64,000 nt of DNA. Source: an uncultured Actinomycetes bacterium. Lineage in GTDB: Bacteria; Actinomycetota; Thermoleophilia; Gaiellales; JAICJC01. The notes beneath the pieces were generated by a model, which was not told where the DNA came from, ran no database searches, and saw only the letters and a list, made by a program, of their open reading frames with translations. This document shows positions 8,799-32,600 of this stretch, in pieces (positions within the stretch are counted from its first letter, which is position 1; every line of letters starts with the position of its first letter). The stretch covers positions 31,662 to 95,661 of the forward strand of contig CAVRSB010000004.1 of NCBI GenBank assembly GCA_963723785.1. The letters are read 5' to 3'. A program made the position numbers and the translations under genes.

Positions 8799-9471
8799 CC
8801 TCGTCGGAGACCAACGAATGATCGACGCGCGCGGCGGCGATCTGGATGTGCTCGGCCATCTTGGCCTTGGCCCGTTCCGGGTTACCACTGAAGATGGCGT
8901 CGATCAGCTCAACGTGCGAGGCGGTGTGCGCCACCAGCTGGCCCTGCTCCAGCAGATACGTGGCCCGGCGCAGGAAGGCGGCGATCCGCCCACGCAGGCC
9001 CTCGACCAGCTGAATCAGCGTCTGGTGATCGGTGGCCGTCCACAGCCGCTCGTGGAACTCCCGGTCGAGATCCGCCACCCGGTCTCGGTCGCCCTTGACC
9101 GCAGCGGCGGCCATGGCTGCCGCCACCGCCCGGAGCTCGTCCTCGGTGCCGGGCGGTGCATGCGTCTGGGCGCGCACCGCCACCAGCTGCTCGAGCACCA
9201 CCCGCACGCTGGAGATCTCCTCCAGCTCGCGCCTGCCCAGCGAGGCGACCCGGGCTCCCCGCCCGGCGGCGCGCTCGACCAGGCCGTCGTCACTGAGCCG
9301 TGCCAGCGCCTCGCGCACCGGGATATGGCTGATGTGGAACTGGGCTGCGATCCGGCGCTCGACCAGGCGGGTACCGGGCTGCAGCGATCCGTCCTGGATG
9401 GCCGTTCGCAGCTGCGTGTAGGCATCGTCCGCGACGCTTTGACGAGACAGCGGGCGGAGCGGCTCTGTCAC
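8779..9471 (-). CDS. GntR family transcriptional regulator (FadR/FCD subfamily)
   Basis: ORF 8779..9471. N-terminal winged HTH (ERRIAAQFHISHIPVREAL) plus a helical FCD-like C-terminal domain. Confidence 0.85.
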   Translation of the reverse strand: MTEPLRPLSRQSVADDAYTQLRTAIQDGSLQPGTRLVERRIAAQFHISHIPVREALARLSDDGLVERAAGRGARVASLGRRELEEISSVRVVLEQLVAVRAQTHAPPGTEDELRAVAAAMAAAAVKGDRDRVADLDREFHERLWTATDHQTLIQLVEGLRGRIAAFLRRATYLLEQGQLVAHTASHVELIDAIFSGNPERAKAKMAEHIQIAAARVDHSLVSDEDESDGE

Positions 9472-11468: not shown

Positions 11469-12424
11469 GCCAGATCGCTGCAGGAGTGCACCGGCTCGAG
11501 GCGCCTCTCGGCGAGCAGTACGTATGCATCTTCGTGGTGGTGGGCGAGACGTCCGCACTGGTCGTGGACACCGGTGTTGCGAACTCACCCGAGGCGACCG
11601 TCGGCATGCTGGCGCCGGATCTGGGGGTCGAGATCTCACACGTGGTCGTCTCGCATGCCGACGTCGATCATTGCGGCGGGATCACGGCCATGCGAGCGAT
11701 CGCTCCGGCCGCACAGGTGCTGTGCTCCCAGGCCGATCGGCCATGGATCGACTCGGTCGACGCGCTGATCGACCACCGCTACCGGGAGTTCCGACACGAG
11801 TACGACATCGACGAGGACGAGGAGTTTTGCTCGTGGGTGCGCCAAAACGACGACGGAGGCCGCGTCGATCACGCGGTCACGCCGCCCGAGACGGTTGATC
11901 TGGGTGGACGCGCGGTCGAGCTCTTGCACACCCCGGGACACACTCGCGGACACCTGACCGTCTTCGACCCAGCGACCCGCACGGCGATCGTGGCCGACGC
12001 GGTGCTCGGAGCGGCGACCCCAGATGCCGCGGGAAACGCCGTCTACGCACCGACCTACCGATACGTGAGCGACTACCGAGCGACGGTCGCCACGCTGCGC
12101 GACCTGGCACCGCACTTCCTGCTCGGGTCGCATTTTCCGGTGGCCGAGGGAGGATCCCAGGTGAGCGCGTTCCTCGACACCACCGAGTCGTTCGTGGACG
12201 CCCTCGAGGCAGCGGCGGTAGCCGCCCTGGAGTCCTCTGCGCCGCTCACCGTGCGTGAGCTGATCGACCTGGCGGCCCCCAGCGTGAGATCCTGGCCGAG
12301 CGCCATGGACATCACACTTGCCGGGCCGGTGGTCGGCCACCTCGAAGACCTTCAAGCCCGCGGCCGGGTGCAGCGCCTCCCCGGGGTCCCCGCGACCTTC
12401 GTACGGGTGGCCGGCGATGGCTGA
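11465..12424 (+). CDS. MBL-fold metallo-hydrolase
   Basis: ORF 11390..12424 trimmed to ATG 11465 (MSQIAAGVHRLE). HADVDHCGG and HTPGHTRGH metal-binding motifs. Confidence 0.8.
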   Translation: MSQIAAGVHRLEAPLGEQYVCIFVVVGETSALVVDTGVANSPEATVGMLAPDLGVEISHVVVSHADVDHCGGITAMRAIAPAAQVLCSQADRPWIDSVDALIDHRYREFRHEYDIDEDEEFCSWVRQNDDGGRVDHAVTPPETVDLGGRAVELLHTPGHTRGHLTVFDPATRTAIVADAVLGAATPDAAGNAVYAPTYRYVSDYRATVATLRDLAPHFLLGSHFPVAEGGSQVSAFLDTTESFVDALEAAAVAALESSAPLTVRELIDLAAPSVRSWPSAMDITLAGPVVGHLEDLQARGRVQRLPGVPATFVRVAGDG

Positions 12425-13427
12425 GGCGACTGTCCAAACCGCACTTTTGGCTGGAACCCACCACGCGGTCGTGCTAGAGAACGACCGCATCCAGGTAACG
12501 ATGCTCCCCGGCCTCGGTGGGGACATCTACTCGGTGCAGGACGTCCGCACCGGAGTCGACGTGCTGTGGAAGACGCCCTGGGGGCTTCAGCCGGACGGCC
12601 CGACCAACGCCGGCGACTCGATCACGGCGTGGGTCAACCGGTATTCCGGTGGCTGGCAGGTGCTGCTTCCCTCCGGTGGCGGGCCGTCGGAGCACGGCGG
12701 CATCACCCACCCGTATCACGGCGAGGCGTGCATGCGCGGCTGGTCGTGGCGGGAGGCGCGCACCGCAGGCGGTGATGCCTGCGTGGCGTTGGACGTGCGG
12801 CTGATCGACACGCCGTTTCGGATCGAGCGAGAGGTGCGGCTGTCGACCGACGGCGCCGGTGTGGTGGTGGATGAACGGATCACCAACGAGGGTGCTTCGC
12901 CCGTTGACTACATGTGGTGTCACCACCCGTCGTTCGGTGCGCCGCTGATCGAGCCGGGGGTGCGCATCATCACCTCGGCCACGTCGCTGGAGGCCGACCC
13001 CGAGATCGACGCGGAATGGAACCCGTTGGTGTTGGGCAGCAGCCATCGCTGGCCGGTGGTGACCGGCCGCGACGGTGCCGACCTTGACCTCTCGGTTTTG
13101 CCGCCGACCGATCACCGGCGCAGTCTGGTCGGCTACCTGTCGAGGTTCACAGCCGGGGAGGCCACCGTCGAGAATCCGCGGCTGGGCCTGGCCTGCACGC
13201 TCAGCTGGCCGTTGGAGGTGTTCCCCTATGCGTGGGTGTGGCAGGAGTTCCGAGGGGAGGCGGGCTGGCCCTGGTACGGCCGCGCATACGTGATCGCGAT
13301 CGAGCCCTGCACCAGCTACCCGGGAGCCGGGCTGGGAGGCGTGATCGCAACCACCAAGACGCACCGGACGCTGGCACCGGGGGAGAGTGCACACGTCGAG
13401 GTGCGCATGACGCTGAACCGTATCTAG
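12417..13427 (+). CDS. aldose 1-epimerase-like (DUF4432-type) protein
   Basis: ORF 12318..13427 trimmed to ATG 12417 (ATGGCTGA overlap with the MBL stop). High GC3. Family call by overall resemblance only. Confidence 0.5.
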   Translation: MAEATVQTALLAGTHHAVVLENDRIQVTMLPGLGGDIYSVQDVRTGVDVLWKTPWGLQPDGPTNAGDSITAWVNRYSGGWQVLLPSGGGPSEHGGITHPYHGEACMRGWSWREARTAGGDACVALDVRLIDTPFRIEREVRLSTDGAGVVVDERITNEGASPVDYMWCHHPSFGAPLIEPGVRIITSATSLEADPEIDAEWNPLVLGSSHRWPVVTGRDGADLDLSVLPPTDHRRSLVGYLSRFTAGEATVENPRLGLACTLSWPLEVFPYAWVWQEFRGEAGWPWYGRAYVIAIEPCTSYPGAGLGGVIATTKTHRTLAPGESAHVEVRMTLNRI

Positions 13428-14164
13428 TCGATCCGCACGCCGCCGTTGACGTCATAGGTCGCGCCCGTTGTGAACGACGAGTCCGGCATCGCCAGCAGCA
13501 CGATGGCGGGAGCGACCTCCTCGGGACGGCCAAAGCGGCCCATCGGGGCACCCGTGGCCATCCGCTCGCGAGCGTCGGGGTGGAGCTGATCGGTGATCGA
13601 CGTATCGATCGGGCCCGGAGTGACCGCATTCACCCGGATGCCCTCGCCGGCCAGGCGGCGGGCGTCGGAGCGGGTGATCGCCAGGATCGCGCCCTTGCTG
13701 GCCGCGTAGTGAACGCTGGTGGTGTATCCGCCGGTCTGCCCCGCGATCGACGAGATGTTGACCACCGACCGGTCTCCGGCTGCAGCCCGAAGCAGCGGCA
13801 GCGCCGCCCGGGTCATCAAGAACGTTCCCCGGGCGTTCGTCTCCAGCACGGCATCCCACTCGTCGACGGTGATGTCGTCCGGCGGCGTGTAGGGACAGAT
13901 GCCGGCGTTGTCGATCAGAATCGAGAGCTCGCCCCAGGCATCGGCCACCTCTGCCACCAGCCCGTCGATCGACGCCGGATCGCGCACGTCGAGCTGCGAC
14001 ATACGAGCCTCCACGCCCCGCTCCCGGCACGCACTCACGACCTGCTCGGCGAGTTCCCTGCGCCCGCCGTAGGTGATCCAGACATCCACCCCTCGCTGGG
14101 CCAGCAGATCGGCTGTGGCGGATCCGATTCCCGAATTTCCGCCTGTTACGAGGGCGCGCGGCAC
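13424..14164 (-). CDS. SDR family oxidoreductase (FabG-like)
   Basis: ORF 13424..14164. TGGNSGIG, NAG, YAASKGA motifs. Confidence 0.9.
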   Translation of the reverse strand: MPRALVTGGNSGIGSATADLLAQRGVDVWITYGGRRELAEQVVSACRERGVEARMSQLDVRDPASIDGLVAEVADAWGELSILIDNAGICPYTPPDDITVDEWDAVLETNARGTFLMTRAALPLLRAAAGDRSVVNISSIAGQTGGYTTSVHYAASKGAILAITRSDARRLAGEGIRVNAVTPGPIDTSITDQLHPDARERMATGAPMGRFGRPEEVAPAIVLLAMPDSSFTTGATYDVNGGVRID

Positions 14165-14189: not shown

Positions 14190-16127
14190 CTAGATTGGGA
14201 ACGGAGCTGCCGTCTGGGCGCCGTTCAGGCGCGGCAGGCTCCAGGCGTCCTCCAGCCCTGCGAGCAATCCCGGATGGGTATAGAGGTGAGAATCCGTGGC
14301 GCCGGCGGCGAAGGAGCCGCCCACTCCGATGGTGGCGATGTGCTCATCGCTTTTGCTTCCCTCGTCCCAGGTGAGGATCACTTCGGCGCCGGCATTGAGC
14401 ATGGCGGGCATGTGCGCGGCCAGCCAGGCGTCACCGGCCTGGATCTGGGCGGTGCGACTGGCGCCGTCGTGCATGTCGTTGGCCAGATTGGGGACGACGT
14501 AGGAGAACGCGCGCAGGTTCGAGGCCGAGAACGAGGTGAACGGCAGCACGTTGGCACACGCGGTCGGGCTGGACGTGATGTCGTTGTAGTAGACGGCGGG
14601 GTTGTGGGCCTTCTTGTAGGAGCCGGTGTCCCCGCCGGTGTAGCAGGTGCTGGGCATCGACTCCACGTACTCACCCCAGCTGACGCCCTTGACCTGAAGC
14701 TGGTGGAAGATGTTGTCCGAGCCGCTGGTCGAGCCGTTCAGCCCGCTGGTGTTGAGCAGATAGTCGGGCAGGCTCCCCGGCTGGGCCTGATAGTTCGTGA
14801 AGTTCGTTCCCTTGGCGAGCAGCGTCTGAATGTAGGGGGCGGCGGAGTTGCCGACGATGTCCGCGTAGTGCTTGTTCTCCATCATGATCACGATGATCGG
14901 ATGGGACGGCCCGCCCCCGCTCCCGCCGCTCTGTGGAGTGGTGACCTGGGCGGGGGCCGACTGGGTCGATGTGTTCGGCACCGCGTCGAACGCATCGACG
15001 GTGTAGGAGTAGGTGGTGTTGGGCTGAACACTGGTGTCCGTCCACGACGTCGCCCCACCGGTCACTTTCTGAATCGCCGTGGTCGAGCCGTCTCGATAGA
15101 CGTCGTACCCGACCGTGCCGACCGCGTCGAAACTGGCGGCCCACGACACCGTCACCGAGGTCGGGCTGTTGGCCACGGCCTTTACGCCCGTGGGCATATC
15201 GGGCGGGGTTGTATCAAGCGCCGGCGAGGGCGTGGTCACTGGAACGGACGGCTGCGACTGCAATGAGGTGTTGGGCACCGCATCGAAGGCATCGACGGTG
15301 TACGTGTAGGTGCTGTTCGGCAGCACGGTGGTGTCAGTCCATGACGTCGCTCCACCGGTCACGGTCTTGATCGACGTGCTCGAACCGTTTCGATAAACGT
15401 GGTAGCCCACAGTCCCGACGGCGTCGAAGCTCGCCGCCCACGACACCGTCACCGAGGTGGCGCTATTGGCCACAGCAGTCACTCCTGTGGGCACGTCGGG
15501 CGCCGTCTGATCCGGCGGCGCGGCCGCACCTGCGGCAAGCACGAGGTTGTCGAACGAATACTTTGCGCCGGTGATCGCCGGCTTCTCCAGGACGTTGACC
15601 GTCAGGGAATCGCCCCCGGTCTTGACCGAATACGTCACCGTCGGGAAGTTCTGCCACGCCGAAGTCACGGTCGTGCACGCTTGGGCGCTTCCCACCGACG
15701 TCTGCGTGCCCGCCGTGAGCTCCTTCAGCACCAGACACACGCTCTGGCCGGAGGTCGCGCTCTGCACCTGTCCATCCAAATGATACGCGGTGCCGGCCAC
15801 GGCATTGGTGACCGGCTTGGAGGTCGTGTAGGCGTAGGTCTGGGTTGCGCCGGCATTGGCGGTCAGCTGTGCGGCGTGACCACCACCGTTTCCCGCCACC
15901 ACGCTGAGCGTGCCGTTGCTTCCGCCCCACCCGCTGGTGGATCCCGCACCGGAGCCCTCGAAGGTTCCGTTGGAGATCGCGTTGGTCGCCGCTACGGCAA
16001 TCGACGCGGTGATCGCGCCGGTTGCGGAGGTAACTCCCAGAGCAACGACGAGTACAGACGAGAGCCTGCGAGCGTTTGTGGCTATACGCACACCTGCACT
16101 ACAGCAGTGCGCAGTGGAATATGTCAA
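14190..16127 (-). CDS. secreted multidomain phosphoesterase: signal peptide, CBM_4_9-like domain, 2x fibronectin type III, PF04185-like phosphoesterase domain
   Basis: ORF 14190..16127 (TTG); GTG 16091 is an alternative start. NGTFEGSG...W CBM-like N-domain, two diverged FN3 modules (APDVPTGVTAVANS..., PPDMPTGVKAVANS...), C-terminal IIVIMMENKHY...PGSLPDYL...HNPAVYY. Confidence 0.8.
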   Translation of the reverse strand: MTYSTAHCCSAGVRIATNARRLSSVLVVALGVTSATGAITASIAVAATNAISNGTFEGSGAGSTSGWGGSNGTLSVVAGNGGGHAAQLTANAGATQTYAYTTSKPVTNAVAGTAYHLDGQVQSATSGQSVCLVLKELTAGTQTSVGSAQACTTVTSAWQNFPTVTYSVKTGGDSLTVNVLEKPAITGAKYSFDNLVLAAGAAAPPDQTAPDVPTGVTAVANSATSVTVSWAASFDAVGTVGYHVYRNGSSTSIKTVTGGATSWTDTTVLPNSTYTYTVDAFDAVPNTSLQSQPSVPVTTPSPALDTTPPDMPTGVKAVANSPTSVTVSWAASFDAVGTVGYDVYRDGSTTAIQKVTGGATSWTDTSVQPNTTYSYTVDAFDAVPNTSTQSAPAQVTTPQSGGSGGGPSHPIIVIMMENKHYADIVGNSAAPYIQTLLAKGTNFTNYQAQPGSLPDYLLNTSGLNGSTSGSDNIFHQLQVKGVSWGEYVESMPSTCYTGGDTGSYKKAHNPAVYYNDITSSPTACANVLPFTSFSASNLRAFSYVVPNLANDMHDGASRTAQIQAGDAWLAAHMPAMLNAGAEVILTWDEGSKSDEHIATIGVGGSFAAGATDSHLYTHPGLLAGLEDAWSLPRLNGAQTAAPFPI

Positions 16128-16138
16128 GTACGTGAGTT

Positions 16139-16160
16139 AACTCTCAGAGTTTTCTCATAA
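16139..16160 (+). promoter_or_regulatory. phased TCTCA direct repeat (candidate response-regulator box) upstream of phosphoesterase 14190..16127
   Basis: AACTCTCAGAGTTTTCTCATAA: TCTCA at 16142 and 16153 (11-bp spacing). The first unit lies within the 13-bp palindrome AACTCTCAGAGTT. Confidence 0.4.
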
Positions 16161-16265
16161 AACGTTAGCTAAATTGATCGTCTCGGGCGGCCACCTGCTC
16201 AGAGCCGAAAAGGTGGCCGCTCGGCCAATTGTTACGGAATGATGTAACCGCGCCGAGCCGCTCGA

Positions 16266-16286
16266 GACTTCACAGTTTTCTCACGA
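16266..16286 (+). promoter_or_regulatory. phased (C/T)TTCA / TCTCA repeat, distal site
   Basis: GACTTCACAGTTTTCTCACGA: CTTCA at 16268 and TCTCA at 16279 (11-bp spacing). Confidence 0.3.
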
Positions 16287-16319
16287 CCGGCATGGAACAA
16301 TCACCGCCCGGCGCCGTAC

Positions 16320-16622
16320 CTACCCCCGCGTAGCAACAGCGACCGTGGACACACCGGTCGGGTGGTCGAGGTCCTTCCCAAAGCACACCAAGGCCACCCG
16401 ACCGCGCGTCGTCACAGCCGTTTGGCTCTCGCGACTCTCCCGCCAGATCGACATCGCCAACAGGCTCACCACCGCGGGCGGCAGAATCCAGTACCCCGCC
16501 ACGCCCGCGTGTTCCAGCACTGCCGTGGCGGCGATAGCCACGAGTACACCAGCCGCCACGGCGGCGTCGTCTCCGACCACGAACCGGTAGACGAACCTGG
16601 CGAACCCAACCACTCCCCTCAT
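16320..16622 (-). CDS. small membrane protein (hypothetical)
   Basis: Tail of ORF 16320..17003 from ATG 16622 (MRGVVGFARFVYRFVVGDD...). ATGA overlap with the upstream stop at 16619. Two predicted TM helices. Confidence 0.6.
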   Translation of the reverse strand: MRGVVGFARFVYRFVVGDDAAVAAGVLVAIAATAVLEHAGVAGYWILPPAVVSLLAMSIWRESRESQTAVTTRGRVALVCFGKDLDHPTGVSTVAVATRG

Positions 16623-17377
16623 CGCTGCACCGCTCCGACGACGTGTCCGGCGCGCGCGGACAGCGCCCGCACCATCAGCCACGCGCTGACGGCGTAGAGC
16701 ACCAGCAGCACGACCAGGAACACATCTCCGCCCGGCCAGTCCCCGCCGGCGCCCTCGGCCGCCCAGAACGACCCATAGGTCACCAGCATCAACCCGACTG
16801 AGAACTTCATCGTGTTCTCGGGGACGCGCGCGAGCGGCACGCGTGCCCACAGCCCCGCTGCGACCACCGCCAGCACCGCCGCGATCGCTCCCGCAGCGGC
16901 CAGGGCCACGCTCCCGCCGTTGCTGCCGAACGTGACCACGATGAAGGCGACCTCGAGCCCCTCCAACAGCACCCCTTTGAAGGCGATGGTGAAGGCATAC
17001 CAATCCACCTCAGCGCGCTCATCAGCCGCAACCGTCCGGGCCGCCTCGACCTCGCGCTGATAGATCGCTCGCTCGTCGTGCAACTCGCGGTAGCCGCCGG
17101 CTCTCAGAATCGCCTTTCGCAGCCACTGGAGGCCAAACACGAGCAAGAGCCCGCCCACAACCAGACGCAGCGCGTCGATCGGAATCGCGGTCAACGCCGG
17201 GCCCAGCACGGCAACCACCGCCGCCAGCGCAACGCTCGCCGCCAGCACCCCTGCCATCGCCGACCGCCAGCCGCGCGTCAGGCCGACGGCGAGCACGATT
17301 GTGAGCGCCTCGACTGCCTCCACCCCGCTCGCCAAGAACGACACCAGCACGAGTACCGCCGGGGCCATCGGACTCAC
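16619..17377 (-). CDS. integral membrane protein (COG4280-like)
   Basis: ORF 16619..17377, 252 aa, about 6 TM helices. Start overlaps the PAP2 gene stop. Confidence 0.7.
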   Translation of the reverse strand: MSPMAPAVLVLVSFLASGVEAVEALTIVLAVGLTRGWRSAMAGVLAASVALAAVVAVLGPALTAIPIDALRLVVGGLLLVFGLQWLRKAILRAGGYRELHDERAIYQREVEAARTVAADERAEVDWYAFTIAFKGVLLEGLEVAFIVVTFGSNGGSVALAAAGAIAAVLAVVAAGLWARVPLARVPENTMKFSVGLMLVTYGSFWAAEGAGGDWPGGDVFLVVLLVLYAVSAWLMVRALSARAGHVVGAVQR

Positions 17378-18165
17378 CCCGCCGTCGGTATCCGCCAGAA
17401 CCGGTGCGAGCTGACCTTGACGGCTACGACCGCAACCACGATCCAGGTGGCCACGACCGTTAATTCCATCTCGTCCAGCAGGTGCGCCCGCTCAGCCGAG
17501 ACAATCCGGGCGAGCACCACGGCGCAGACCACGCCGACAACCGCACCGCGAAATCTGGGGCTCATGATCGTGATGCGCACCGGGCGCAGGAGTGACCCCC
17601 TAGCCAGCAGCGGGTCGGTGGCGCGGCTACAGGCGTTGATCACCGGCACCAGCACGCGCTCCATCGCGATTCGCGCGGCGAAGTAGCCGCTCGCGACCGA
17701 CACAACCAGGCTGCCGAGCACGTCGGTGGGGTAGTGCATTCCCGCCATCACCCGAGACGCTGAAACCACGGCGGCGAACACGAGCAGCAACCAACCGGCG
17801 CGACGCGACACGAAGTACACGCCGAAGGCGATCGACAGCGCGGCGGTCGCGTGATCGCTCGGAAAGGACGCGTCGATGGAGCGTGGCAGCAACGGGACGA
17901 TGCTTGGGTGGACCTCGTACGGCCGCGCGCGGTCCCATAGGTGCGAGATCACCTGGTTTGCGAGCAGCCCCAGCGCGGCGGCCGAAAGCCCGGCTGCGCA
18001 CGCCCGCTTCCAGGTGGTGTCGCCCGGAGGGGAGAGCAGCCACAGGCCGACCGCAAGGATGCCGAACAACGGGACGCCCCACGTCGAAAACTCCACAACG
18101 ACGCCGGCCAGCAGCGGGTGTGCATGCATCAGCCGGTTGACCCACTCCACAAACGTCGTTTCCAT
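17374..18165 (-). CDS. PAP2 superfamily phosphatase (membrane)
   Basis: ORF 17374..18165. SFPSDH and GMHYPTDV acid-phosphatase motifs, multi-TM. Confidence 0.85.
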   Translation of the reverse strand: METTFVEWVNRLMHAHPLLAGVVVEFSTWGVPLFGILAVGLWLLSPPGDTTWKRACAAGLSAAALGLLANQVISHLWDRARPYEVHPSIVPLLPRSIDASFPSDHATAALSIAFGVYFVSRRAGWLLLVFAAVVSASRVMAGMHYPTDVLGSLVVSVASGYFAARIAMERVLVPVINACSRATDPLLARGSLLRPVRITIMSPRFRGAVVGVVCAVVLARIVSAERAHLLDEMELTVVATWIVVAVVAVKVSSHRFWRIPTAG

Positions 18166-18262
18166 ATCACTCCCTGCTCGCGTTCACCGTCCATTTACAG
18201 CATACGAGCGATGTACAAACCGCGAGACAGTTACCTCTGCTCGTACTATTCAAGCGACCTAA

Positions 18263-18292
18263 CCTCTCACGAATCTCTCATACGTTCTCACG
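18263..18292 (+). promoter_or_regulatory. three phased TCTCA repeats in the divergent PAP2 / response-regulator intergenic region
   Basis: CCTCTCACGAATCTCTCATACGTTCTCACG: TCTCA at 18265, 18276 and 18286 (spacings 11 and 10 bp). Confidence 0.45.
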
Positions 18293-18372
18293 AGTGGCGT
18301 TTCGATACGCGACCTGCGAGCGGATATTGGCGGTATGGTTGTGGCTGGTGACGACCCCGTGAAGATCACTCC

Positions 18373-19035
18373 GTGATGCGGCCCCGAGTACTCCTCGTCG
18401 ACGACGACTCCGCCATCCTGCGCATGCTGGTGCGGACATTGGAAGCTGAGGGCTACGAGACCGATGCAGCCTCGGACGGGGCCACGGCGCTGGTGCGGGC
18501 GGAAGCCTCGGTGCCCGACGTGATCGTGCTCGATGTGGCCATGCCCGGTATGGATGGACTGGCGGTGTCACGGCGACTCCGGGAGAAGGGGCAGCGGGTG
18601 CCGATTCTGTTCCTGACCGCGCGGGATGCGGTCTCCGACCGGGTTGCCGGCCTGGACGCGGGGGGCGACGACTATCTGGTCAAGCCGTTTGCGACCGACG
18701 AGCTGGAGGCACGCCTGCGCGCTCTGCTCCGGCGCGGTCGTACCCGCAATCGGATCTCGTACGGCGATCTGACGGTCGACGCGGACGCCCGCACCGCCTC
18801 GCGGGCCGGGCGAGAGGTGAGGCTGACAGGCCGCGAGGCCGCCCTCCTGACGCTGCTGGTAAACCGGGCGGGCGAGGTGGTCAGCCGCGAGCAGGCGCTG
18901 GCGGCGGTCTGGGGCGAGGGACGGATGCCGACGGCAAACACGGTCGACCGCTACGTCGCCTATCTCCGCCAGAAGCTCGGTGATCCGCCGCTGATCCACA
19001 CGGTCAGAGGCGTCGGTTTCCAGCTCCGGCAATGA
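18373..19035 (+). CDS. OmpR/PhoB family response regulator
   Basis: ORF 18373..19035. Receiver domain (LLVDDD, VLDVAMPGMDG) plus a winged-helix output domain (TVDRYVAYLRQKL...IHTVRGVGF). Confidence 0.9.
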   Translation: MMRPRVLLVDDDSAILRMLVRTLEAEGYETDAASDGATALVRAEASVPDVIVLDVAMPGMDGLAVSRRLREKGQRVPILFLTARDAVSDRVAGLDAGGDDYLVKPFATDELEARLRALLRRGRTRNRISYGDLTVDADARTASRAGREVRLTGREAALLTLLVNRAGEVVSREQALAAVWGEGRMPTANTVDRYVAYLRQKLGDPPLIHTVRGVGFQLRQ

Positions 19036-20372
19036 GGCGCTGGAAGCTCCGCACCCGTATCGCGCTGGCATCGGCGCTGGCGATGCTGGTCGGGGTTGCG
19101 CTGATGGAGATCGGCGTCCAGGCACTGCTGGCCCGCGAGCTGCACCAGCAGCTCGACCACACGCTGCAGCAGAGAGCAGCCGACATCGACGAGATCGCGG
19201 AGTCGTACCCGGGGACAATCCCGCCGGCACGCGCCCTGGAGTCGGACCCGGTCGCGATCGGGACGACGGTCGAGGTAGTCAACGAGCAAGGCCGTGTGGT
19301 TCAACCCAAACCCAAGGACAAGCAGGGCCAGGTCCCCATCACTCCGGTTGTGAACGAAGTAATCAAGAGCGGGAAGTCTCGTTTCGTCACGACCACCATC
19401 CAGGGCCGCGAGCTGCGGGTGTTCATGCAGCCCCTGGAGCCCAGCGGCGCGGTGTTGGTCGCGTCGTCGACGGATGCGATCGAGGACGGCCTCTCCCAGG
19501 CCCGCTGGCTGACCCTTGTGGCCGGGATCGTCGCCGCCGGCGTGGCGGCCGGGGTGTGCCTGCTGGTGGCCAGCCGTGCGCTTCGGCCATTGACCGACCT
19601 CAACGCCCAGGTGATGGAGGTGCAGCGCACCGCCGATCCCAGCCGGCGGGTGGTGACCGAGCCCACCGGTGACGAGCTGGAGCAGCTGGGCACAGCGCTG
19701 AACGCGATGCTTGAGGCGCTGCAACGGGCCCGGGAGGTGGAGCGGCGGTTCCTGGCCGACGCCTCGCACGAGATGCGCACCCCGCTGACCGCGCTGCGGG
19801 GGAACGCCGCGTACCTGGCCCGGCACGGTGCCGACGCCGAGGCCGAGGCGTTTCTGGATCTCGAGAACGACATGGCCCGGCTGGCGCAGCTGCTCGACCG
19901 TCTGCTCGCTGTGGCCCGCGAGGATGCGGCCGCGCAGCCGACCCAGCCGGTGGCGGTGGACGACATCCTCGACCGGTTCAGAACCGACCCGCGGCTGCGC
20001 GTCACCCTCGATCCCGAGCTCTACGTCCGCGCCGACGCCGATGCGATCGAGCGTGCCCTCACCAACCTGATCGAGAACGCCAAGCTGTACGGGCCCGACG
20101 GCGGGTTGATCACCGTCAGCGCGGCGCTCGACCAGGGCGAGGTGGTACTGACCGTCACCGATACCGGGATGGGCATCCCCGGCGCCACCTTCGACGAGGC
20201 CACCACACGGTTCTGGCGCGGCTCCAACAGCGCCGGGCTAGAGGGTGCCGGGCTGGGGCTGGGACTGGTACGATCGACTGCCGAGCGACACGGCGGATCG
20301 CTCACAATCGACGACGCGAGCTTCTCCATTCGGCTGCCGGCGCTACTCGAAGTTCCTCAACCGCGCACGTAG
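19032..20372 (+). CDS. sensor histidine kinase (2 TM, HAMP, HisKA, HATPase_c)
   Basis: ORF 19032..20372, 4-nt overlap with the regulator gene. H-box SHEMRTPLT, N-box LIENAKLYG, DTGMGIP, GLGLGL. Confidence 0.9.
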   Translation: MRRWKLRTRIALASALAMLVGVALMEIGVQALLARELHQQLDHTLQQRAADIDEIAESYPGTIPPARALESDPVAIGTTVEVVNEQGRVVQPKPKDKQGQVPITPVVNEVIKSGKSRFVTTTIQGRELRVFMQPLEPSGAVLVASSTDAIEDGLSQARWLTLVAGIVAAGVAAGVCLLVASRALRPLTDLNAQVMEVQRTADPSRRVVTEPTGDELEQLGTALNAMLEALQRAREVERRFLADASHEMRTPLTALRGNAAYLARHGADAEAEAFLDLENDMARLAQLLDRLLAVAREDAAAQPTQPVAVDDILDRFRTDPRLRVTLDPELYVRADADAIERALTNLIENAKLYGPDGGLITVSAALDQGEVVLTVTDTGMGIPGATFDEATTRFWRGSNSAGLEGAGLGLGLVRSTAERHGGSLTIDDASFSIRLPALLEVPQPRT

Positions 20373-20380
20373 CTCTGGAA

Positions 20381-20403
20381 AACTCTCAGAGAACTCTCAG
20401 AAA
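20381..20403 (+). promoter_or_regulatory. phased AACTCTCAGA(G/A)A direct repeat upstream of phosphoesterase 20437..22494
   Basis: AACTCTCAGAGAACTCTCAGAAA: CTCTCA at 20383 and 20394 (11 bp). A -10-like TGTAAT/TAATGT at 20410-20417 follows about 11 bp later, the geometry of PhoB-type activation. Confidence 0.45.
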
Positions 20404-20436
20404 CTGCGCTGTAATGTAGTTGCGGGGAGGGCTCCA

Positions 20437-22494
20437 ATGCGCACTTTTACTGCGGTTGTGTTTGGTGTGTGTAGTGTCATGCTGATCGGTGCCGCGGCTG
20501 CACCTGCGGCGACCAACCTGGTTGCAAATCCCGGGTTCGAGGGGTCGGGCGCGGGCGCACTCTCGAGCTGGGGCGGAAGCGCCGGCACGCTCACGCTGGT
20601 CACCGGTGACGGCGGTGGCCACGCCGCGCGTCTGACAGCATCGGGCACCGGGCAGATGTACATCTACACCAGTTCGAAGCCGGCGAAGTCAATCGCGGCG
20701 GGAGCGCCCTACACCGCCGGGGGTCGCGTTTCCAGCATCTCCGCCGGGCAGTCCGTGTGTCTGCAGATCAAAGAGGTACCGGCCGGCGGCAGCTCCGCGG
20801 TCGGTTCGGCCAAACAGTGTGTAACCGCAACGTCGGCGTGGCAGTCGTTCCCGGCGGTCAACTACACGACCAAGACGGCGGGAGACTCACTGACCATCGA
20901 CGTGATCGACGCTGCGCCCGGCTCGAACGCGTCGTTTGACCTCGATAACGTCACACTCAGCACCGGTACCGGTGGCGGAGGTGGCGACACGGTTGCCCCT
21001 TCGGTACCTCAAAACGTGGCTGCCACCGGAGACAGCCCCACCAGCGTCCACATCACCTGGAACGCCTCCACCGACAACAGCGGCACCGTCGCCGGATACC
21101 ACGTCTACCGCGGCACCACCACCATCGCCACGCTCACCGGCACCACCACCAGCTTCGAAGACACCGGCCTGGCAGCATCCACGCCCTACACCTACTCCGT
21201 CGACGCCTTCGACGCAGTACCCAACACCTCCCTCCACTCCGCAACCGCCACCGGCACAACCCTCGCCGGCGGTGGCGGCGGTGACACCGTTGCCCCTTCG
21301 GTACCTCAAAACGTGGCTGCCACCGGAGACAGCCCCACCAGCGTCCACATCACCTGGAACGCCTCCACCGACAACAGCGGCACCGTCGCCGGATACCACG
21401 TCTACCGCGGCACCACCACCATCGCCACGCTCACCGGCACCACCACCAGCTTCGAAGACACCGGCCTGGCAGCATCCACGCCCTACACCTACTCCGTCGA
21501 CGCCTTCGACGCAGTACCCAACACCTCCCTCCACTCCGCAACCGCCACCGGCACAACCCTCGCCGGCGGTGGCGGCTCAGGCCCCTGCGGGCTGCTGCCG
21601 GCTTCGACCGCGCCGTACAAGCACGTGGTCGTGCTGATGGAGGAGAACCTCACCTACTCCGACTTCATCGCCGCCACCGACGCGCCCGAGATGCACGCGC
21701 TCGCCAACAACTGCCGGTTCCTGACCGATTCGGCAGGCGAGACGCACCCCAGCTTCCCCAACTACGAGGCGGTCACAAGCGGCCAGTTCTCGACCTGCCT
21801 GGGTTGCACGACCACCGCGGACAACATCTTCCACCAGATGAACGGGACCGGGCTGACGTGGCGCGACTACAACCAGTCGATGCCGTCCAACTGTGCCACC
21901 AACACCAGCAAGGTCTCGTATTACCGTGACGGCCACAATCCGGCGTTCTGGTACACAAATCTCGGCTCGAAGACCGGTGGCGACGGTTCATGTGCCAAAT
22001 ATGACGTGCCGCTGGATCCGTACTTCTGGAACGACGTCGCCGCCGACAACCTGCCCAGCTTCTCGTGGATCGCGCCCGATGACTGCCGCGACCTGCACTG
22101 GATGAACGGCGTGTGCGAGAACGTCGTGCCCGGCAAGACCCACGACGATCGCATCAACGTTGGCGACGGGTTCGTCCAGCAGGTCGTCTCGGCCATCACC
22201 GCCACTCCGAGCTATCAGGCTGGGGAAACGCTGATCGTGTTCACGTTCGACGAGTCGAACTATCTGTCCACGCAGGTCAAGGGCAACTGGGGCATCGACT
22301 GCTCGAACCACACTGTGTACCTCGCAAACACGAAGACCTGCCAGGTCGCGACTATCCTGATCTCGGCACGGATGCCGAAGGGGCCGACTTCGGCGTTCTA
22401 CAGCCTGTACAGCGTGGGCGCTGCAATCGAGCAGAACTTCGGTCTGCCGCTGCTTGGTCACGAAGGCTCGGTTACACCCGCCCCGATCTATTGA
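20437..22494 (+). CDS. secreted multidomain phosphoesterase: signal peptide, CBM_4_9-like domain, 2x identical FN3, PF04185-like phosphoesterase domain
   Basis: ORF 20245..22494 trimmed to ATG 20437 behind GGGGAGGG. MRTFTAVVFGVCSVMLIGAAAAPA signal, NPGFEGSG CBM-like domain, duplicated FN3, HVVVLMEENLTY...HPSFPNY...GHNPAFWY. Confidence 0.85.
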   Translation: MRTFTAVVFGVCSVMLIGAAAAPAATNLVANPGFEGSGAGALSSWGGSAGTLTLVTGDGGGHAARLTASGTGQMYIYTSSKPAKSIAAGAPYTAGGRVSSISAGQSVCLQIKEVPAGGSSAVGSAKQCVTATSAWQSFPAVNYTTKTAGDSLTIDVIDAAPGSNASFDLDNVTLSTGTGGGGGDTVAPSVPQNVAATGDSPTSVHITWNASTDNSGTVAGYHVYRGTTTIATLTGTTTSFEDTGLAASTPYTYSVDAFDAVPNTSLHSATATGTTLAGGGGGDTVAPSVPQNVAATGDSPTSVHITWNASTDNSGTVAGYHVYRGTTTIATLTGTTTSFEDTGLAASTPYTYSVDAFDAVPNTSLHSATATGTTLAGGGGSGPCGLLPASTAPYKHVVVLMEENLTYSDFIAATDAPEMHALANNCRFLTDSAGETHPSFPNYEAVTSGQFSTCLGCTTTADNIFHQMNGTGLTWRDYNQSMPSNCATNTSKVSYYRDGHNPAFWYTNLGSKTGGDGSCAKYDVPLDPYFWNDVAADNLPSFSWIAPDDCRDLHWMNGVCENVVPGKTHDDRINVGDGFVQQVVSAITATPSYQAGETLIVFTFDESNYLSTQVKGNWGIDCSNHTVYLANTKTCQVATILISARMPKGPTSAFYSLYSVGAAIEQNFGLPLLGHEGSVTPAPIY
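20992..21576 (+). repeat. perfect tandem duplication, period 297 bp (one FN3 module, 99 aa)
   Basis: 20992-21279 is identical base for base to 21289-21576 on line-by-line comparison. Lies inside CDS 20437..22494. Confidence 0.9.
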
Positions 22495-22520
22495 TCGGAT
22501 ACTTACACCGTCTACACAAC

Positions 22521-22540
22521 TCGTCATGGGTCTCTCATGT
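22521..22540 (+). promoter_or_regulatory. weaker phased CGTCA / TCTCA pair upstream of phosphoesterase 22562..23440
   Basis: TCGTCATGGGTCTCTCATGT: CGTCA at 22522 and TCTCA at 22533 (11 bp). Confidence 0.3.
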
Positions 22541-22561
22541 TCGACCGTTAGCTTGTGAGTA

Positions 22562-23440
22562 ATGGGCTCCCAAATACGAGTGGCAGTCATCGGACTAATA
22601 ACGACCTGCGCGTTGTTTTTGGCGATCGCCTCGCCGGCCTCCGCAGCACCACGATTGAAGCATGTGTGGGTGGTCGTTCTCGAGAACCACAGCACCGGCC
22701 AGATCCTGGGGAATCCGCAGGCGCCGTACCTGAACAAGCTGGCCCGCCGAAACGGCCTGGCAACCCGGTACTACAGCCTCGACCATCCCAGTCTTCCAAA
22801 CTACCTTGCGTTGATCTCAGGATCCACGCAGGGGTGCGGATCGGACAGCTGCAAGCCGGGGTACGGCGGCCCGCTCTTGACGCGCCAACTGCGACATCGC
22901 CACCTGGCTTGGCGGGGATATTTCCAGGGACTGCCGCACGCGGGATACATCGGTGGCGACAAAGGCTCGTACGTCCGGCACCACAACCCGTTCGCGTACT
23001 TCAAGTCGATCACCAACTCTCACCACGCCCGGCGAAACATCCGCCCGTTGACGTCACTACGGCGCAGCCTGCGCCATCCGCCGGCGTTCAGCCTCGTGGT
23101 TCCCGACAATCAGCACAACATGCATACCGGCAGCATTGCCAAGTCCGACAAATGGCTCCGCCACTGGATCCCGAAGATCATCCATTCGCGCAAGTTCAGG
23201 CATCAAAGTGCGCTCTTCATCACCTTTGACGAGGGCCACAACGACTCCAGCGGCTGTTGCCTGCGCGGCGTTCACGGGGGCCGCACGGTGCTGATCGCCA
23301 TCACCTCCCACCGGCATCGCTCGAGACTGCATAAACCTCGCACCGCATACTCGCTGCTGCGCACCATCGAGAGCGGATTCCGGCTCAAGCCGATCGCGCA
23401 CGCCTCCCGCGTCCGCCCGCTCAACGCCTTCTGGCGGTGA
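22562..23440 (+). CDS. secreted phosphoesterase family protein (PF04185-like, single domain)
   Basis: ORF 22562..23440. Signal peptide, HVWVVVLENHS...HPSLPNYLALISG...HHNPFAYF. The stop TGA lies inside palindrome copy A. Confidence 0.85.
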   Translation: MGSQIRVAVIGLITTCALFLAIASPASAAPRLKHVWVVVLENHSTGQILGNPQAPYLNKLARRNGLATRYYSLDHPSLPNYLALISGSTQGCGSDSCKPGYGGPLLTRQLRHRHLAWRGYFQGLPHAGYIGGDKGSYVRHHNPFAYFKSITNSHHARRNIRPLTSLRRSLRHPPAFSLVVPDNQHNMHTGSIAKSDKWLRHWIPKIIHSRKFRHQSALFITFDEGHNDSSGCCLRGVHGGRTVLIAITSHRHRSRLHKPRTAYSLLRTIESGFRLKPIAHASRVRPLNAFWR

Positions 23441-31272: not shown

Positions 31273-32600
31273 CAGAACGCTCCATCGATGGCGGCGCCGA
31301 CCGTGTCCGCGGTTACCAGCTTGAGCCGAGACGCCGCAGGTGTCTCGGTCGGCACGACCAGTTCGGTGACGCCAAACTTGCGCGCCTCCTGCAGGCGCGG
31401 CCCGACATGTCCGACCGCCCGCACTCGACCGGTGAGACCGAGCTCGCCGAACGCGGCCAGCCGGGGACGCAGCGCACGCCCGCGCAGGGCTGACACGATC
31501 GCCAGCGCGACCGCCAGGTCGGCTGCGGGCTCGTCGATGCGAACGCCGCCGGCCACGTTCACAAAGATGTCGCTCGACCCCAGGGGCACTCCGGCGTGGC
31601 GTCCGAGCACCGCCACGATCATGGACAGTCGGTTGCGGTCAAACCCGGTGGCCGCCCGCCGCGGCATCGCCAGGTCGGAGTCGGCCACCAGCGCCTGCAC
31701 CTCCAGCAGGATCGGGCGGGTGCCCTCGATCGCAGGCAGCAGTACCGAGCCGGGCGCTGGCTCGCCGTCGCCGGCGAACGCCGACGAGGGGTCGTCCACC
31801 GGCTCCAAGCCCAGGCCGGTCATCTCGAAGATGCCGATCTCGTTGGTCGATCCAAACCGGTTCTTGACGGCCCGCAGCACTCGCAGGAAGCGGTAGCGAT
31901 CACCCTCGAACTGCAGCACCGCGTCCACCAGATGCTCGAGCACGCGCGGCCCGGCGACGTTGCCGTCCTTGGTCACGTGCCCGACCAGGATGATGGTGAC
32001 CCCATGGCTCTTGGCCACTCGGGCAAGCCGGTCGGCGGCCTCCCGCACCTGGCCGACACTGCCGGGCGAGGAGCTCAGATCTGCGGAGTGCATCGTCTGC
32101 ACCGAGTCAACCACGCACACCTGGGGCGCGGTGGCCACGATCGCCTCACATACCGACTCGAGCTCTGTCTCGGCCAGGATCGAGATCCCGTCGATCGCTC
32201 CCAGCCGCTCGGCCCGCAGCCGCACCTGGGCGGGCGACTCTTCACCGGCCACCAGCAGCACAGGCCTGCCCGCGGCCGCGATCCGCCCGAGCGACTGCAG
32301 GAGCAGCGAACTCTTGCCCACGCCGGGCTCACCCCCGATCAGCACCAGCGACCCCGGCACCAGACCGCCGCCCAGCACCCGATCGAACTCCTCCAGGCCG
32401 GTCGAGATGCGGTCGGAATCGGTCAGCGCGACATCAGACAGGGCCCTGACCGGCCGCCCCACCGGTGCCCGCCGAGACGTGGAGCGCTCGCGCACCTCCT
32501 CGACCAGCGTGTTCCATTCGCCGCAGCCGGAGCATTGGCCCAGCCACTTGGGCGACTCGTGGCCACACTGGCTGCAGGTGAATATGGTGAGCGTCTTGGG
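31272..32600 (-). CDS. radA: DNA repair protein RadA
   Basis: ORF 31272..32648, likely GTG start at 32600. Zinc ribbon CSQCG...CSGCGEW, Walker A GEPGVGKSSL, KNRFG, Lon-like C-domain. Confidence 0.9.
   Translation of the reverse strand, partial: PKTLTIFTCSQCGHESPKWLGQCSGCGEWNTLVEEVRERSTSRRAPVGRPVRALSDVALTDSDRISTGLEEFDRVLGGGLVPGSLVLIGGEPGVGKSSLLLQSLGRIAAAGRPVLLVAGEESPAQVRLRAERLGAIDGISILAETELESVCEAIVATAPQVCVVDSVQTMHSADLSSSPGSVGQVREAADRLARVAKSHGVTIILVGHVTKDGNVAGPRVLEHLVDAVLQFEGDRYRFLRVLRAVKNRFGSTNEIGIFEMTGLGLEPVDDPSSAFAGDGEPAPGSVLLPAIEGTRPILLEVQALVADSDLAMPRRAATGFDRNRLSMIVAVLGRHAGVPLGSSDIFVNVAGGVRIDEPAADLAVALAIVSALRGRALRPRLAAFGELGLTGRVRAVGHVGPRLQEARKFGVTELVVPTETPAASRLKLVTADTVGAAIDGAF

Follow-up and report, generated by a model that had tools for sequence, protein, structure and literature searches.

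A putative autoregulated regulon of PhoP/PhoR type with secreted phosphatase targets in an uncultured Thermoleophilia-like actinobacterium

We analysed a 64,000-nt stretch of DNA (the window; 62–71% G+C) and in it a locus at 14190–23440, where an OmpR/PhoB-family response regulator and its sensor histidine kinase lie among three genes for secreted PF04185 phosphoesterases (PE1, PE2 and PE3) and a divergent operon encoding a PAP2 phosphatase, a COG4280-like protein and a small membrane protein. The locus is probably an autoregulated two-component regulon of the actinobacterial type represented by PhoP of Mycobacterium tuberculosis and PhoR of Corynebacterium glutamicum, built around direct repeats of TCTCA that precede the genes of the system and of the phosphoesterases. 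The regulon and its binding motif are well supported by sequence features, conservation and promoter geometry, from which binding, activation and the inducing signal are in turn deduced. The window has a counterpart in a soil-type metagenome assembly (ENA ERZ25039568, the 190-kb contig_10532), and its source is an uncultured Thermoleophilia-like actinobacterium: among the matches listed, the nearest named relatives of the kinase, about 40% identical, are metagenome-assembled genomes of Gaiellales and Solirubrobacterales, and the downstream carD–ispDF–disA–radA synteny agrees. A first-pass annotation of the same DNA had assigned the gene content given above, which Pfam and NCBIfam profiles confirmed.

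Direct-repeat boxes beside a two-component system

The regulator (18373–19035, + strand) consists of a receiver domain (PF00072, 109 bits) and a winged-helix Trans_reg_C domain (PF00486, 81.6 bits), and the kinase (19032–20372, + strand) carries HAMP (PF00672, 30.2 bits), HisKA (PF00512, 45.6 bits) and HATPase_c (PF02518, 66 bits) domains, all above cut-off and together the domain set of an OmpR/PhoB-family two-component system. Two transmembrane helices of the kinase (residues ~10–33 and 162–180) enclose an extracytoplasmic loop of ~128 amino acids and are followed by the HAMP domain at 178–231; Pfam found no PAS domain. The regulator did not reach the PhoB equivalog (TIGR02154, 178.5 versus a cut-off of 296.2), nor did the kinase reach the PhoR equivalog (TIGR02966, 121.1 versus 334.2), its match being confined to residues 230–427. 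The best full-length NCBIfam match of the kinase was to heavy-metal CztS/CopS (147 versus a cut-off of 293) and the second-best match of the regulator was to CztR/CopR (190 versus 279).

The exact pattern TCTCA-N6-TCTCA occurs three times in the 64 kb (at 16142, 18265 and 20384), compared with 0.03 expected, and none of 100 shuffles of the sequence reached three copies. The motif is thus enriched over shuffled controls by ~100-fold, and all three exact copies are intergenic and stand beside the two-component system. A weight matrix trained solely on sites from other loci and then scored across the window placed its top positions at 20381, 16139, 18262 and 18273, with scores of 24.5–30.8 bits. 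Together with two weaker copies these make up five sites (S1–S5), all on the + strand. The first-pass annotation had described (C/T)TCTCA units at all five; the units at 16142/16153, 18265/18276/18286 and 20384/20395 hold, whereas the first units at 16268 (CTTCACA) and 22522 (TCGTCA) do not fit the pattern. Its further point, that these are direct repeats spaced by one helical turn, was borne out by units 10–11 bp apart at five sites, by the enrichment and by retention of the repeats in relatives, and such an arrangement would suit a tandemly bound regulator.

Relatives of the locus are given L numbers. A kinase-profile scan of a genome collection yielded, among the matches listed, relatives of no more than 42% identity, and the close orthologs were retrieved individually by exact protein. 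Their kinases are 90% (L084/L085), 69% (L086), 66% (L087/L088/L091), 65% (L090) and 58% (L089) identical to that of the window, and the regulator of L174 is 79% identical.

The strongest box, S4 (20371–20417, + strand; 30.8 bits), combines one degenerate and two perfect units, AACTCTCAGAG AACTCTCAGAA, with a −10 element TGTAAT/TAATGT at 20410–20417, after which come a ribosome-binding site (GGGGAGGG) and the PE2 start codon (ATG 20437); its counterpart in L084 has three perfect units. Ahead of PE3 lies S5 (22519–22554, + strand; 13.0 bits), ACTCGTCATGG GTCTCTCATGT, the first unit of which is degenerate, with the −10 element TAGCTT (22549–22554) 11 nt downstream and a leaderless ATG at 22562. 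Both the box and its −10 element are kept in L084, and PE3-like genes have a perfect box in L090 and a one-mismatch box in L174, with the same geometry. The divergent region between the PAP2 operon and the regulator gene holds S3 (18262–18294, + strand; 25.9 and 24.5 bits), a box of three units, ACCTCTCACGA ATCTCTCATAC GTTCTCACGAG, that is kept in L084, L087, L091 and L174 and degenerate in L090. The probable −10 element of the regulator–kinase operon is TATGGT (18334–18339, + strand), within a sequence, GGTATGGTTGT, common to the window and L084. Since S3 stands 43 nt upstream of it, activation of the system's own operon would need an upstream position.

Two further boxes occupy the spacer between PE1 and the PAP2 operon. 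S1 (16139–16175, + strand; 29.0 bits), AACTCTCAGAG TTTTCTCATAA, has a −10 element TAAATT (16170–16175) 12 nt downstream and is kept in L084, there with TACATT; it is oriented opposite to PE1 and faces away from that gene, occupying positions −51 to −66 with respect to its start. S2 (16265–16301, + strand; 11.4 bits), AGACTTCACAG TTTTCTCACGA, again with a degenerate first unit, has a −10 element AACAAT (16296–16301) 12 nt downstream and is oriented so as to read into the 3′ end of the PAP2 operon; L084 and L087 keep box and −10 element at this spacing, L087 despite a different left-hand gene.

The distance to the −10 element is not random. A TANNNT sequence starts 11–12 nt after the last TCTCA in 8 of 22 exact double boxes, when chance would give 0.4% per site (binomial p ~2e-14), and in 6 of 19 after removal of the L084 duplicates. 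Boxes placed in this way span roughly −43 to −22 and appear to replace the −35 element, an activator geometry of PhoB type. That geometry had been proposed at 20381–20417; it is correct there and recurs at 22519–22554, 16139–16175 and 16265–16301. Judged by box and promoter, the regulator is predicted to act directly, within the window, on the genes of the three secreted PF04185 acid phosphatases and on the system's own operon, and probably on a conserved small RNA.

Boxes in relatives and metagenomes

In L084/L085, boxes stand at all five equivalent places. The PAP2 open reading frame is cleanly absent there (9071–9342), with its promoter region fused directly to COG4280, and PAP2 is therefore dispensable for the locus. 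L087, L088 and L091 retain the divergent arrangement of PAP2–COG4280–small against regulator–kinase with a box in the spacer, and the boxes of L087/L091 precede the genes for the regulator, a GH16 protein and DedA. This DedA (VTT-domain) gene has two boxes 43 bp apart and an in-frame ATG 6 nt past the −10 element TAGCCT, which gives a leaderless mRNA.

More distant arrangements exchange the genes and keep the boxes. L090 has a perfect box before a PE3-like PF04185 gene directly downstream of the kinase and a degenerate one before the regulator; a BacA/UppP gene (PF02673) stands divergent from COG4280–small (12154–14015), in the place taken by PAP2 elsewhere; its start is leaderless, and a box precedes its −10 element by 11 nt. 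In L174 (5841–11996), an array of DUF347–FTR1–regulator–PE–DedA–PAP2 faces COG4280–small, with no adjacent kinase gene, and seven boxes with at most one mismatch fall within 12.7 kb (~0.4 expected). These precede DUF347, the regulator, PE and a leaderless COG4280, and one box is aimed into the 3′ end of the PAP2 gene. By the same reading of box and promoter, targets in relatives would include BacA, DedA, a second PAP2, COG4280 with its small partner, FTR1 and GH16.

We found 11 exact boxes in 80 kinase-homolog loci (1.36 Mb); most of them immediately precede the regulator gene or immediately follow the kinase gene. A scan of metagenomes for the box plus a −10 element gave 82 matches, ~50 of them in high-GC contigs, and among these ~50 an OmpR-type regulator gene adjoins the match in 19 loci. 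HtrA-like proteases followed the box and −10 element in three contigs (L103, L121 and L167) and DUF2231 membrane proteins in six (L128, L145, L147, L162, L170 and L171), while no PstS-like gene was present among the genes downstream of box and −10. The scan backs the box class and is uninformative on the regulator's own regulon, as it mixes several paralogous regulators. The proposal that the repeats act as sites of the adjacent OmpR/PhoB-family regulator agrees with their orthologous positions, their association with homologous regulators elsewhere, their spacing to the −10 element and their likeness to characterized boxes.

Comparison with characterized regulators

The nearest solved homolog of the regulator is M. 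tuberculosis PhoP (PDB 5ED4 and 3R0J; 46.5% identity, E = 2e-52), with PrrA also among the closest. A tandem dimer of PhoP binds TCACAGC-N4-TCACAGC direct repeats in an 11-bp register, with the recognition helix reading the 7-bp motif and Arg237 of the wing placed in the minor groove (PMC4832192). The recognition helix is NTVDRYVAYLRQK in the window and NVVESYVSYLRRK in M. tuberculosis PhoP. Four of the seven DNA-contact residues are kept (Asn212, Tyr217, Tyr220 and Arg237), and Val213, Glu215 and Ser216 are replaced by Thr, Asp and Arg, respectively. The two motifs differ at position 3, which is A in PhoP and T here, and also at position 7; because Ser216 reads position 3 of the motif via water, its replacement by Arg may be linked to the difference at that position. 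The PhoP regulon of M. tuberculosis (lipid synthesis, ESX-1 and pH response) has no cargo in common with the locus.

The C. glutamicum PhoS–PhoR pair offers the nearest functional precedent. Compared by description (PMC3353115), PhoS resembles the kinase here in its two transmembrane helices, extracytoplasmic domain of ~120 amino acids, HAMP, HisKA and HATPase domains, and PhoR, like the regulator here, is of OmpR type. PhoS–PhoR is a phosphate-starvation system that is positively autoregulated and activates secreted phosphatases, and the PhoR box, CCTGTGAAaatCCTGTGAA, consists of 8-bp tandem repeats joined by a 3-bp linker and has the reverse complement TTCACAGG-N3-TTCACAGG (PMC3353115); its target phoC is annotated as a putative secreted phosphoesterase (PMC4448153). 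The core of the boxes described here, TCTCAG(A/G)G, is one base apart from TTCACAGG, with T for A at position 3, and otherwise the box layout matches, as does the presence of a box upstream of the regulator gene. The first-pass annotation had held that the motif differs from known PHO boxes, which is true of the E. coli pho box but overlooks the C. glutamicum PhoR box at a single base's distance. The target sets diverge further: no target of the pstSCAB, ugp or phoU kind was found here, and BacA, DedA, COG4280, FTR1 and GH16, the targets in relatives, are not reported for it.

With E. coli PhoR–PhoB the system shares repeats that replace the −35 element ~10 bp upstream of the −10 element, autoregulation and phosphatase targets. 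It differs in scoring below the equivalogs, in its large extracytoplasmic domain without PAS, in the sequence of the box and in having no linkage to pst or phoU. A further parallel may be the box of M. tuberculosis MprA, in which 8-bp direct repeats similar to TCTCAGGG are set 3 bp apart and which belongs to an autoregulated system; unlike MprA–MprB, the locus has no linked protease or sigma-factor gene.

Proposed mechanism and inducing signal

We propose that the membrane kinase, through its 128-aa extracytoplasmic domain, would respond to a signal by phosphorylating the OmpR-family regulator, molecules of which would occupy the 11-bp-phased boxes in tandem (unit consensus ~(A/T)(A/T)(C/T)TCTCA(G/C/T)(A/G)N). 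At cargo promoters the box would sit at the −35 position, ending 11–12 nt before a TANNNT-like −10 element, and the bound regulator would recruit RNA polymerase. This activating geometry would serve PE2, the leaderless PE3 and two +-strand promoters in the spacer between PE1 and the PAP2 operon, one of which probably gives rise to a structured, conserved ~100-nt RNA convergent with the PAP2–COG4280–small operon. At the system's own operon the triple box, which lies farther upstream and is shared with the divergent PAP2 operon, would provide positive feedback. The output would be enzymes and membrane proteins that process phosphate esters outside the cytoplasm: secreted PF04185 acid phosphatases in the window and, in relatives, additionally undecaprenyl-pyrophosphate (UPP) phosphatases (PAP2 or BacA), DedA, COG4280 with its small partner, FTR1–DUF347 and GH16.

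As the signal, we tentatively favour phosphate limitation, because the only genes of the window with activating boxes encode three secreted enzymes of acid-phosphatase type, because PhoSR of C. glutamicum, which has the same layout, responds to phosphate starvation, and because phosphate is set free on the outer side of the membrane by PAP2 and BacA. Stress to the envelope or its lipid carrier is a less likely signal that still has to be taken seriously, and some other signal again is about as unlikely. The first-pass annotation had read the locus as a phosphate-scavenging regulon. What stands of this is a local autoregulated regulon with PhoB-like geometry. The argument from PAP2 points elsewhere, and the system is not a PhoR or PhoB equivalog and has no linked pst or phoU gene. 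The label itself stays a plausible conjecture.

Several findings weigh against this account. S2 (11.4 bits) and S5 (13.0 bits) reach scores that shuffled sequence also gives (mean maximum 14.1), and we consider them credible because relatives conserve both with the same spacing to the −10 element. PE1 has a consensus −35 element of its own, and S1 is reversed relative to it at a distance of 14, 16 or 24 bp across three lineages, so S1 seems to serve primarily the rightward promoter. At the PAP2 operon, the probable −10 element of which is TATGCT (18199–18204, − strand; kept in the window, L084 and L087), a check of the − strand found no box in an activating position. A single TCTCG lies 18 nt from this −10 element and is not kept in relatives, and the S3 triple box stands at about −64 to −89 of the operon in reverse orientation; control of the PAP2 operon by the regulator is therefore suggested by the shared divergent spacer alone, in contrast to L174, where the PE–DedA–PAP2 operon and the COG4280 gene both carry boxes. 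Outside the core clade, the two nearest kinase relatives, those of L086 (69%) and L089 (58%), lie in a MarR–cupin–regulator–kinase layout that lacks boxes. In the metagenome scan, boxes of the same class precede DUF2231, FCD-domain, HtrA-like protease and dioxygenase genes near other regulators; the motif therefore appears to be common to a wider clade of actinobacterial regulators that use TCTCAG-type boxes, and cross-talk with other regulators of the class is possible. As to phosphate, BacA, DedA, GH16 and FTR1 are not typical Pho genes, and no pst, phoU or canonical Pho gene is linked to the system in the window or any of the loci retrieved, where tblastn with approximate sequences of E. 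coli PstB and PhoU gave no PhoU match, its other matches being generic ABC ATPases with identities up to 32%.

The replacement of PAP2 by BacA and the DedA targets point at least as much to a lipid-carrier or envelope function as to phosphate. The locus could accordingly be read as a regulon for envelope stress and lipid-carrier homeostasis, similar to MprAB or to sigma-M of Bacillus subtilis, in which the kinase would sense wall or membrane damage or a shortage of undecaprenyl phosphate, the regulator would boost carrier recycling (UPP phosphatase and DedA flippase) and wall-active enzymes, and the PF04185 enzymes would act on wall or lipid-linked phosphoesters. We regard this as possible but rather unlikely. 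It would explain why the best NCBIfam matches of the polytopic PAP2 protein are the undecaprenyl-diphosphate phosphatases YbjG and SepP, why L090 has the non-homologous UPP phosphatase BacA beside COG4280–small with a box 11 nt from its −10 element, why the leaderless dedA gene is directly targeted in L087/L091 and lies behind a box in L174 as part of a PE–DedA–PAP2 operon, and why GH16 is a target in L087; HtrA-like proteases behind the same class of box in three metagenome contigs also fit, as would the possible likeness to the MprA box. There is a precedent: DedA proteins flip undecaprenyl phosphate, and in wall-stressed B. subtilis BcrC, UptA and IspD/F are induced together by sigma-M (bioRxiv 10.1101/2024.01.17.576085; PMC11474028), and the co-regulation of a PAP2-type UPP phosphatase with a DedA-family flippase resembles that of PAP2 or BacA with DedA in the relatives studied here. 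The B. subtilis regulon differs in being controlled by an extracytoplasmic function (ECF) sigma factor rather than a two-component system, and in having no secreted PF04185 phosphatases. The window itself argues the other way, as its activating boxes are found only at the three genes of secreted acid-phosphatase type and not at the PAP2 operon. PAP2 is dispensable in the closest relative, its assignment to this substrate rests on matches below cut-off (65 bits versus 229), and the targets of close relatives include no sigma factor, protease or peptidoglycan-synthesis gene.

Control of COG4280, FTR1 and metal-dependent phosphatases by a kinase that senses an extracytoplasmic cation (iron, calcium, manganese or a heavy metal) seems improbable. 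The CztS/CopS and CztR/CopR matches of the kinase and regulator would suit such a system, as would the match of COG4280 to the iron/lead permease family PF16955 with ExxE-type motifs and the FTR1 gene behind a box in L174. Both matches, however, are far below the NCBIfam cut-offs, a comparison of orthologs showed no conserved His, Cys or ExxE motif in the sensor domain, and no transporter in the window is under an activating box. CusR/CopR boxes are palindromic, whereas those of the locus are direct repeats. Finally, the repeats might not be sites of the adjacent regulator at all, being products of chance, remnants of duplication or sites of another factor. The shuffle-level scores of S2 and S5, the sharing of the box class with other regulators and the two-component systems of L086 and L089 without boxes could be cited for this. 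We find it scarcely credible in view of the ~100-fold enrichment, the retention of boxes across relatives while the flanking genes vary, the fixed distance to the −10 element and the likeness to boxes of the closest characterized regulators (PMC4832192, PMC3353115).

Thermoleophilia-like actinobacteria, abundant members of soil communities, have scarcely been studied, and the locus provides for them a regulator, a box and a small, coherent set of targets. If phosphate is the signal, these define a Pho-type box and a secreted phosphatase set for the lineage, with relevance to soil phosphorus turnover; if it is the envelope, secreted PF04185 enzymes and the uncharacterized COG4280–small pair become tied to lipid-carrier recycling. 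With either signal, the circuit is a variation on the well-known actinobacterial ones of PhoP, PhoR and MprA type and introduces no new principle. Two leads are modestly novel: the putative small RNA, and the connection that joins PF04185 phosphatases to UPP phosphatases, DedA and COG4280–small. One could go further and suppose that in these bacteria secreted acid phosphatases are coupled to the recycling of polyprenyl-phosphate carriers, that COG4280–small takes part in the handling of undecaprenyl (pyro)phosphate or in its cation supply, and that the ~100-nt RNA tunes the PAP2–COG4280–small operon; we think it quite doubtful that all three hold together. A role of COG4280–small in carrier handling may be considered because the pair, which shares its regulation with DedA, has PAP2 as a neighbour in some relatives and BacA in one other.

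Secreted phosphoesterases and the PAP2 operon

PE1, PE2 and PE3 all scored above the PF04185 cut-off of 23 (49.6, 63.5 and 77.1 bits, respectively) and have N-terminal hydrophobic segments or signal peptides, which identifies them as secreted members of the family. PE1 (− strand; 14190–16127 as annotated, probably 14190–16091) comprises a signal peptide, an N-terminal domain, two fn3 domains and PF04185. Its start is most likely GTG 16091 on a leaderless mRNA and not TTG 16127, because that TTG belongs to the TTGACA −35 element of PE1's own promoter. This promoter (16098–16127, − strand) consists of TTGACA at 16127–16122, an 18-nt spacer and TGTAGT at 16103–16098; its sequence, GAATATGTCAAGT, is identical in the window, L084, L087 and L091, with the spacing conserved in relatives, and the start codon and its distance from the −10 element are kept in the L087 ortholog.

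PE2 (20437–22494, + strand) is a secreted protein with an N-terminal hydrophobic segment, two fn3 domains and a C-terminal PF04185 domain. It carries a 297-bp tandem duplication at 20986–21576 (2.0 copies, 99% identical) that doubles one FN3 module and is either very recent or an effect of assembly. PE3 (22562–23440, + strand) is a putative secreted PF04185 acid phosphatase of 292 amino acids and of the short type; a sequence search against solved structures gave no match. Its homologs bear the source names acid phosphatase, phosphatidylinositol-3-phosphatase or phospholipase C. The second of these names goes back to M. tuberculosis SapM, a secreted PF04185 acid phosphatase of ~299 amino acids and of the same short type as PE3.

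The PAP2 protein (17374–18165, − strand) is a polytopic integral membrane protein that matches the PAP2 superfamily with 64.6 bits (cut-off 27.2). Its top NCBIfam matches, the undecaprenyl-diphosphate phosphatases YbjG (NF008813, 65.3 versus 229) and SepP (NF047884, 45.6 versus 250), were below cut-off, so that in NCBIfam it fails the equivalog score for an undecaprenyl-diphosphate phosphatase of BcrC/YbjG/SepP type, and its similarity to solved structures is weak and limited to the surroundings of the catalytic motif. We infer its likely substrate from context, namely the presence of BacA in its place in L090 and its linkage to DedA in L174. The first-pass annotation had counted PAP2 among the scavenging genes; it is indeed a PAP2 phosphatase gene, but it encodes a polytopic membrane enzyme nearest to undecaprenyl-diphosphate phosphatases and not a secreted scavenger.

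The COG4280-like protein (16619–17377, − strand) is likewise a polytopic membrane protein, matching PF16955 (OFeT_1) over residues 94–236 with 39.0 bits (cut-off 26.9). Two of its transmembrane helices contain ExxE-type motifs, VEAVE and LEGLE, and it is probably a cation transporter; no match to solved structures was found by sequence search. The COG4280 family is uncharacterized and very abundant, and unusually conserved, with 65–75% identity over thousands of metagenome proteins. A small partner of 61–69 amino acids follows COG4280 in every locus examined (the window, L040, L084, L087, L090 and L174–L177). We also considered a constant linkage of the COG4280–small pair to PAP2 or BacA and rejected it, as the pair has other contexts in L175–L177, L040 and L042.

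In the window the partner is a small two-helix membrane protein (16320–16622, − strand) that reads as 100 amino acids. Compared with a second assembly of this contig (L001), the window carries one additional C, at 16426, which shifts the frame and extends the protein from 69 to 100 amino acids. This base is probably a long-read indel error, and the true length is probably 69 amino acids, with the frame ending near 16413. Translational coupling by ATGA overlaps, as earlier claimed for the operon, is present at the COG4280/small junction, and also at the regulator/kinase junction, but not between PAP2 and COG4280, where the overlap is GTGA or, if ATG 17368 is used as the start, gives way to a gap of 5 nt.

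Candidate structured RNA in the PE1/PAP2-operon spacer

Between the window and L084, the spacer separating PE1 from the PAP2 operon has a mean identity of 91%, which exceeds that of the neighbouring coding sequence, and includes stretches of ~50 and ~100 nt with little or no sequence change. The longer element is a candidate small or antisense RNA of ~100 nt with two hairpins (16306–16410, + strand), located downstream of S2 and corresponding to about 8013–8119 in L084 and 7322–7428 in L087. Its folding z-scores in the three lineages were −3.9, −4.1 and −5.4 on the + strand, compared with −2.4, −1.7 and −3.6 on the − strand. Changes on both sides were seen in 8 of 35 base pairs, and several G–U pairs in L087 are valid on the + strand only. 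Rfam gave no match in a permissive search of 14–24 kb or in a search of the whole window at the gathering threshold. With two effective lineages, these data are suggestive of a regulator-dependent RNA of ~100 nt that converges on the PAP2–COG4280–small operon, and its second hairpin may also act as the terminator of that convergent operon.

Another hairpin follows the S1 promoter (16183–16224, + strand); it is identical in the window and L084 and has a z-score of −4.07 on the + strand versus −2.85 on the − strand. S1 and this hairpin align to the dedA promoter region of L087, where the hairpin matches the second box. The hairpin could belong to a terminator or a short transcript, or be a relic: given the alignment, and given that dedA is missing from the window, the region of S1 and the hairpin may be what is left of a lost dedA promoter region. 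Away from the locus, ARAGORN called a tRNA-Thr(GGT) at 32291–32381 (− strand), which at 91 nt is unusually long for such a tRNA.

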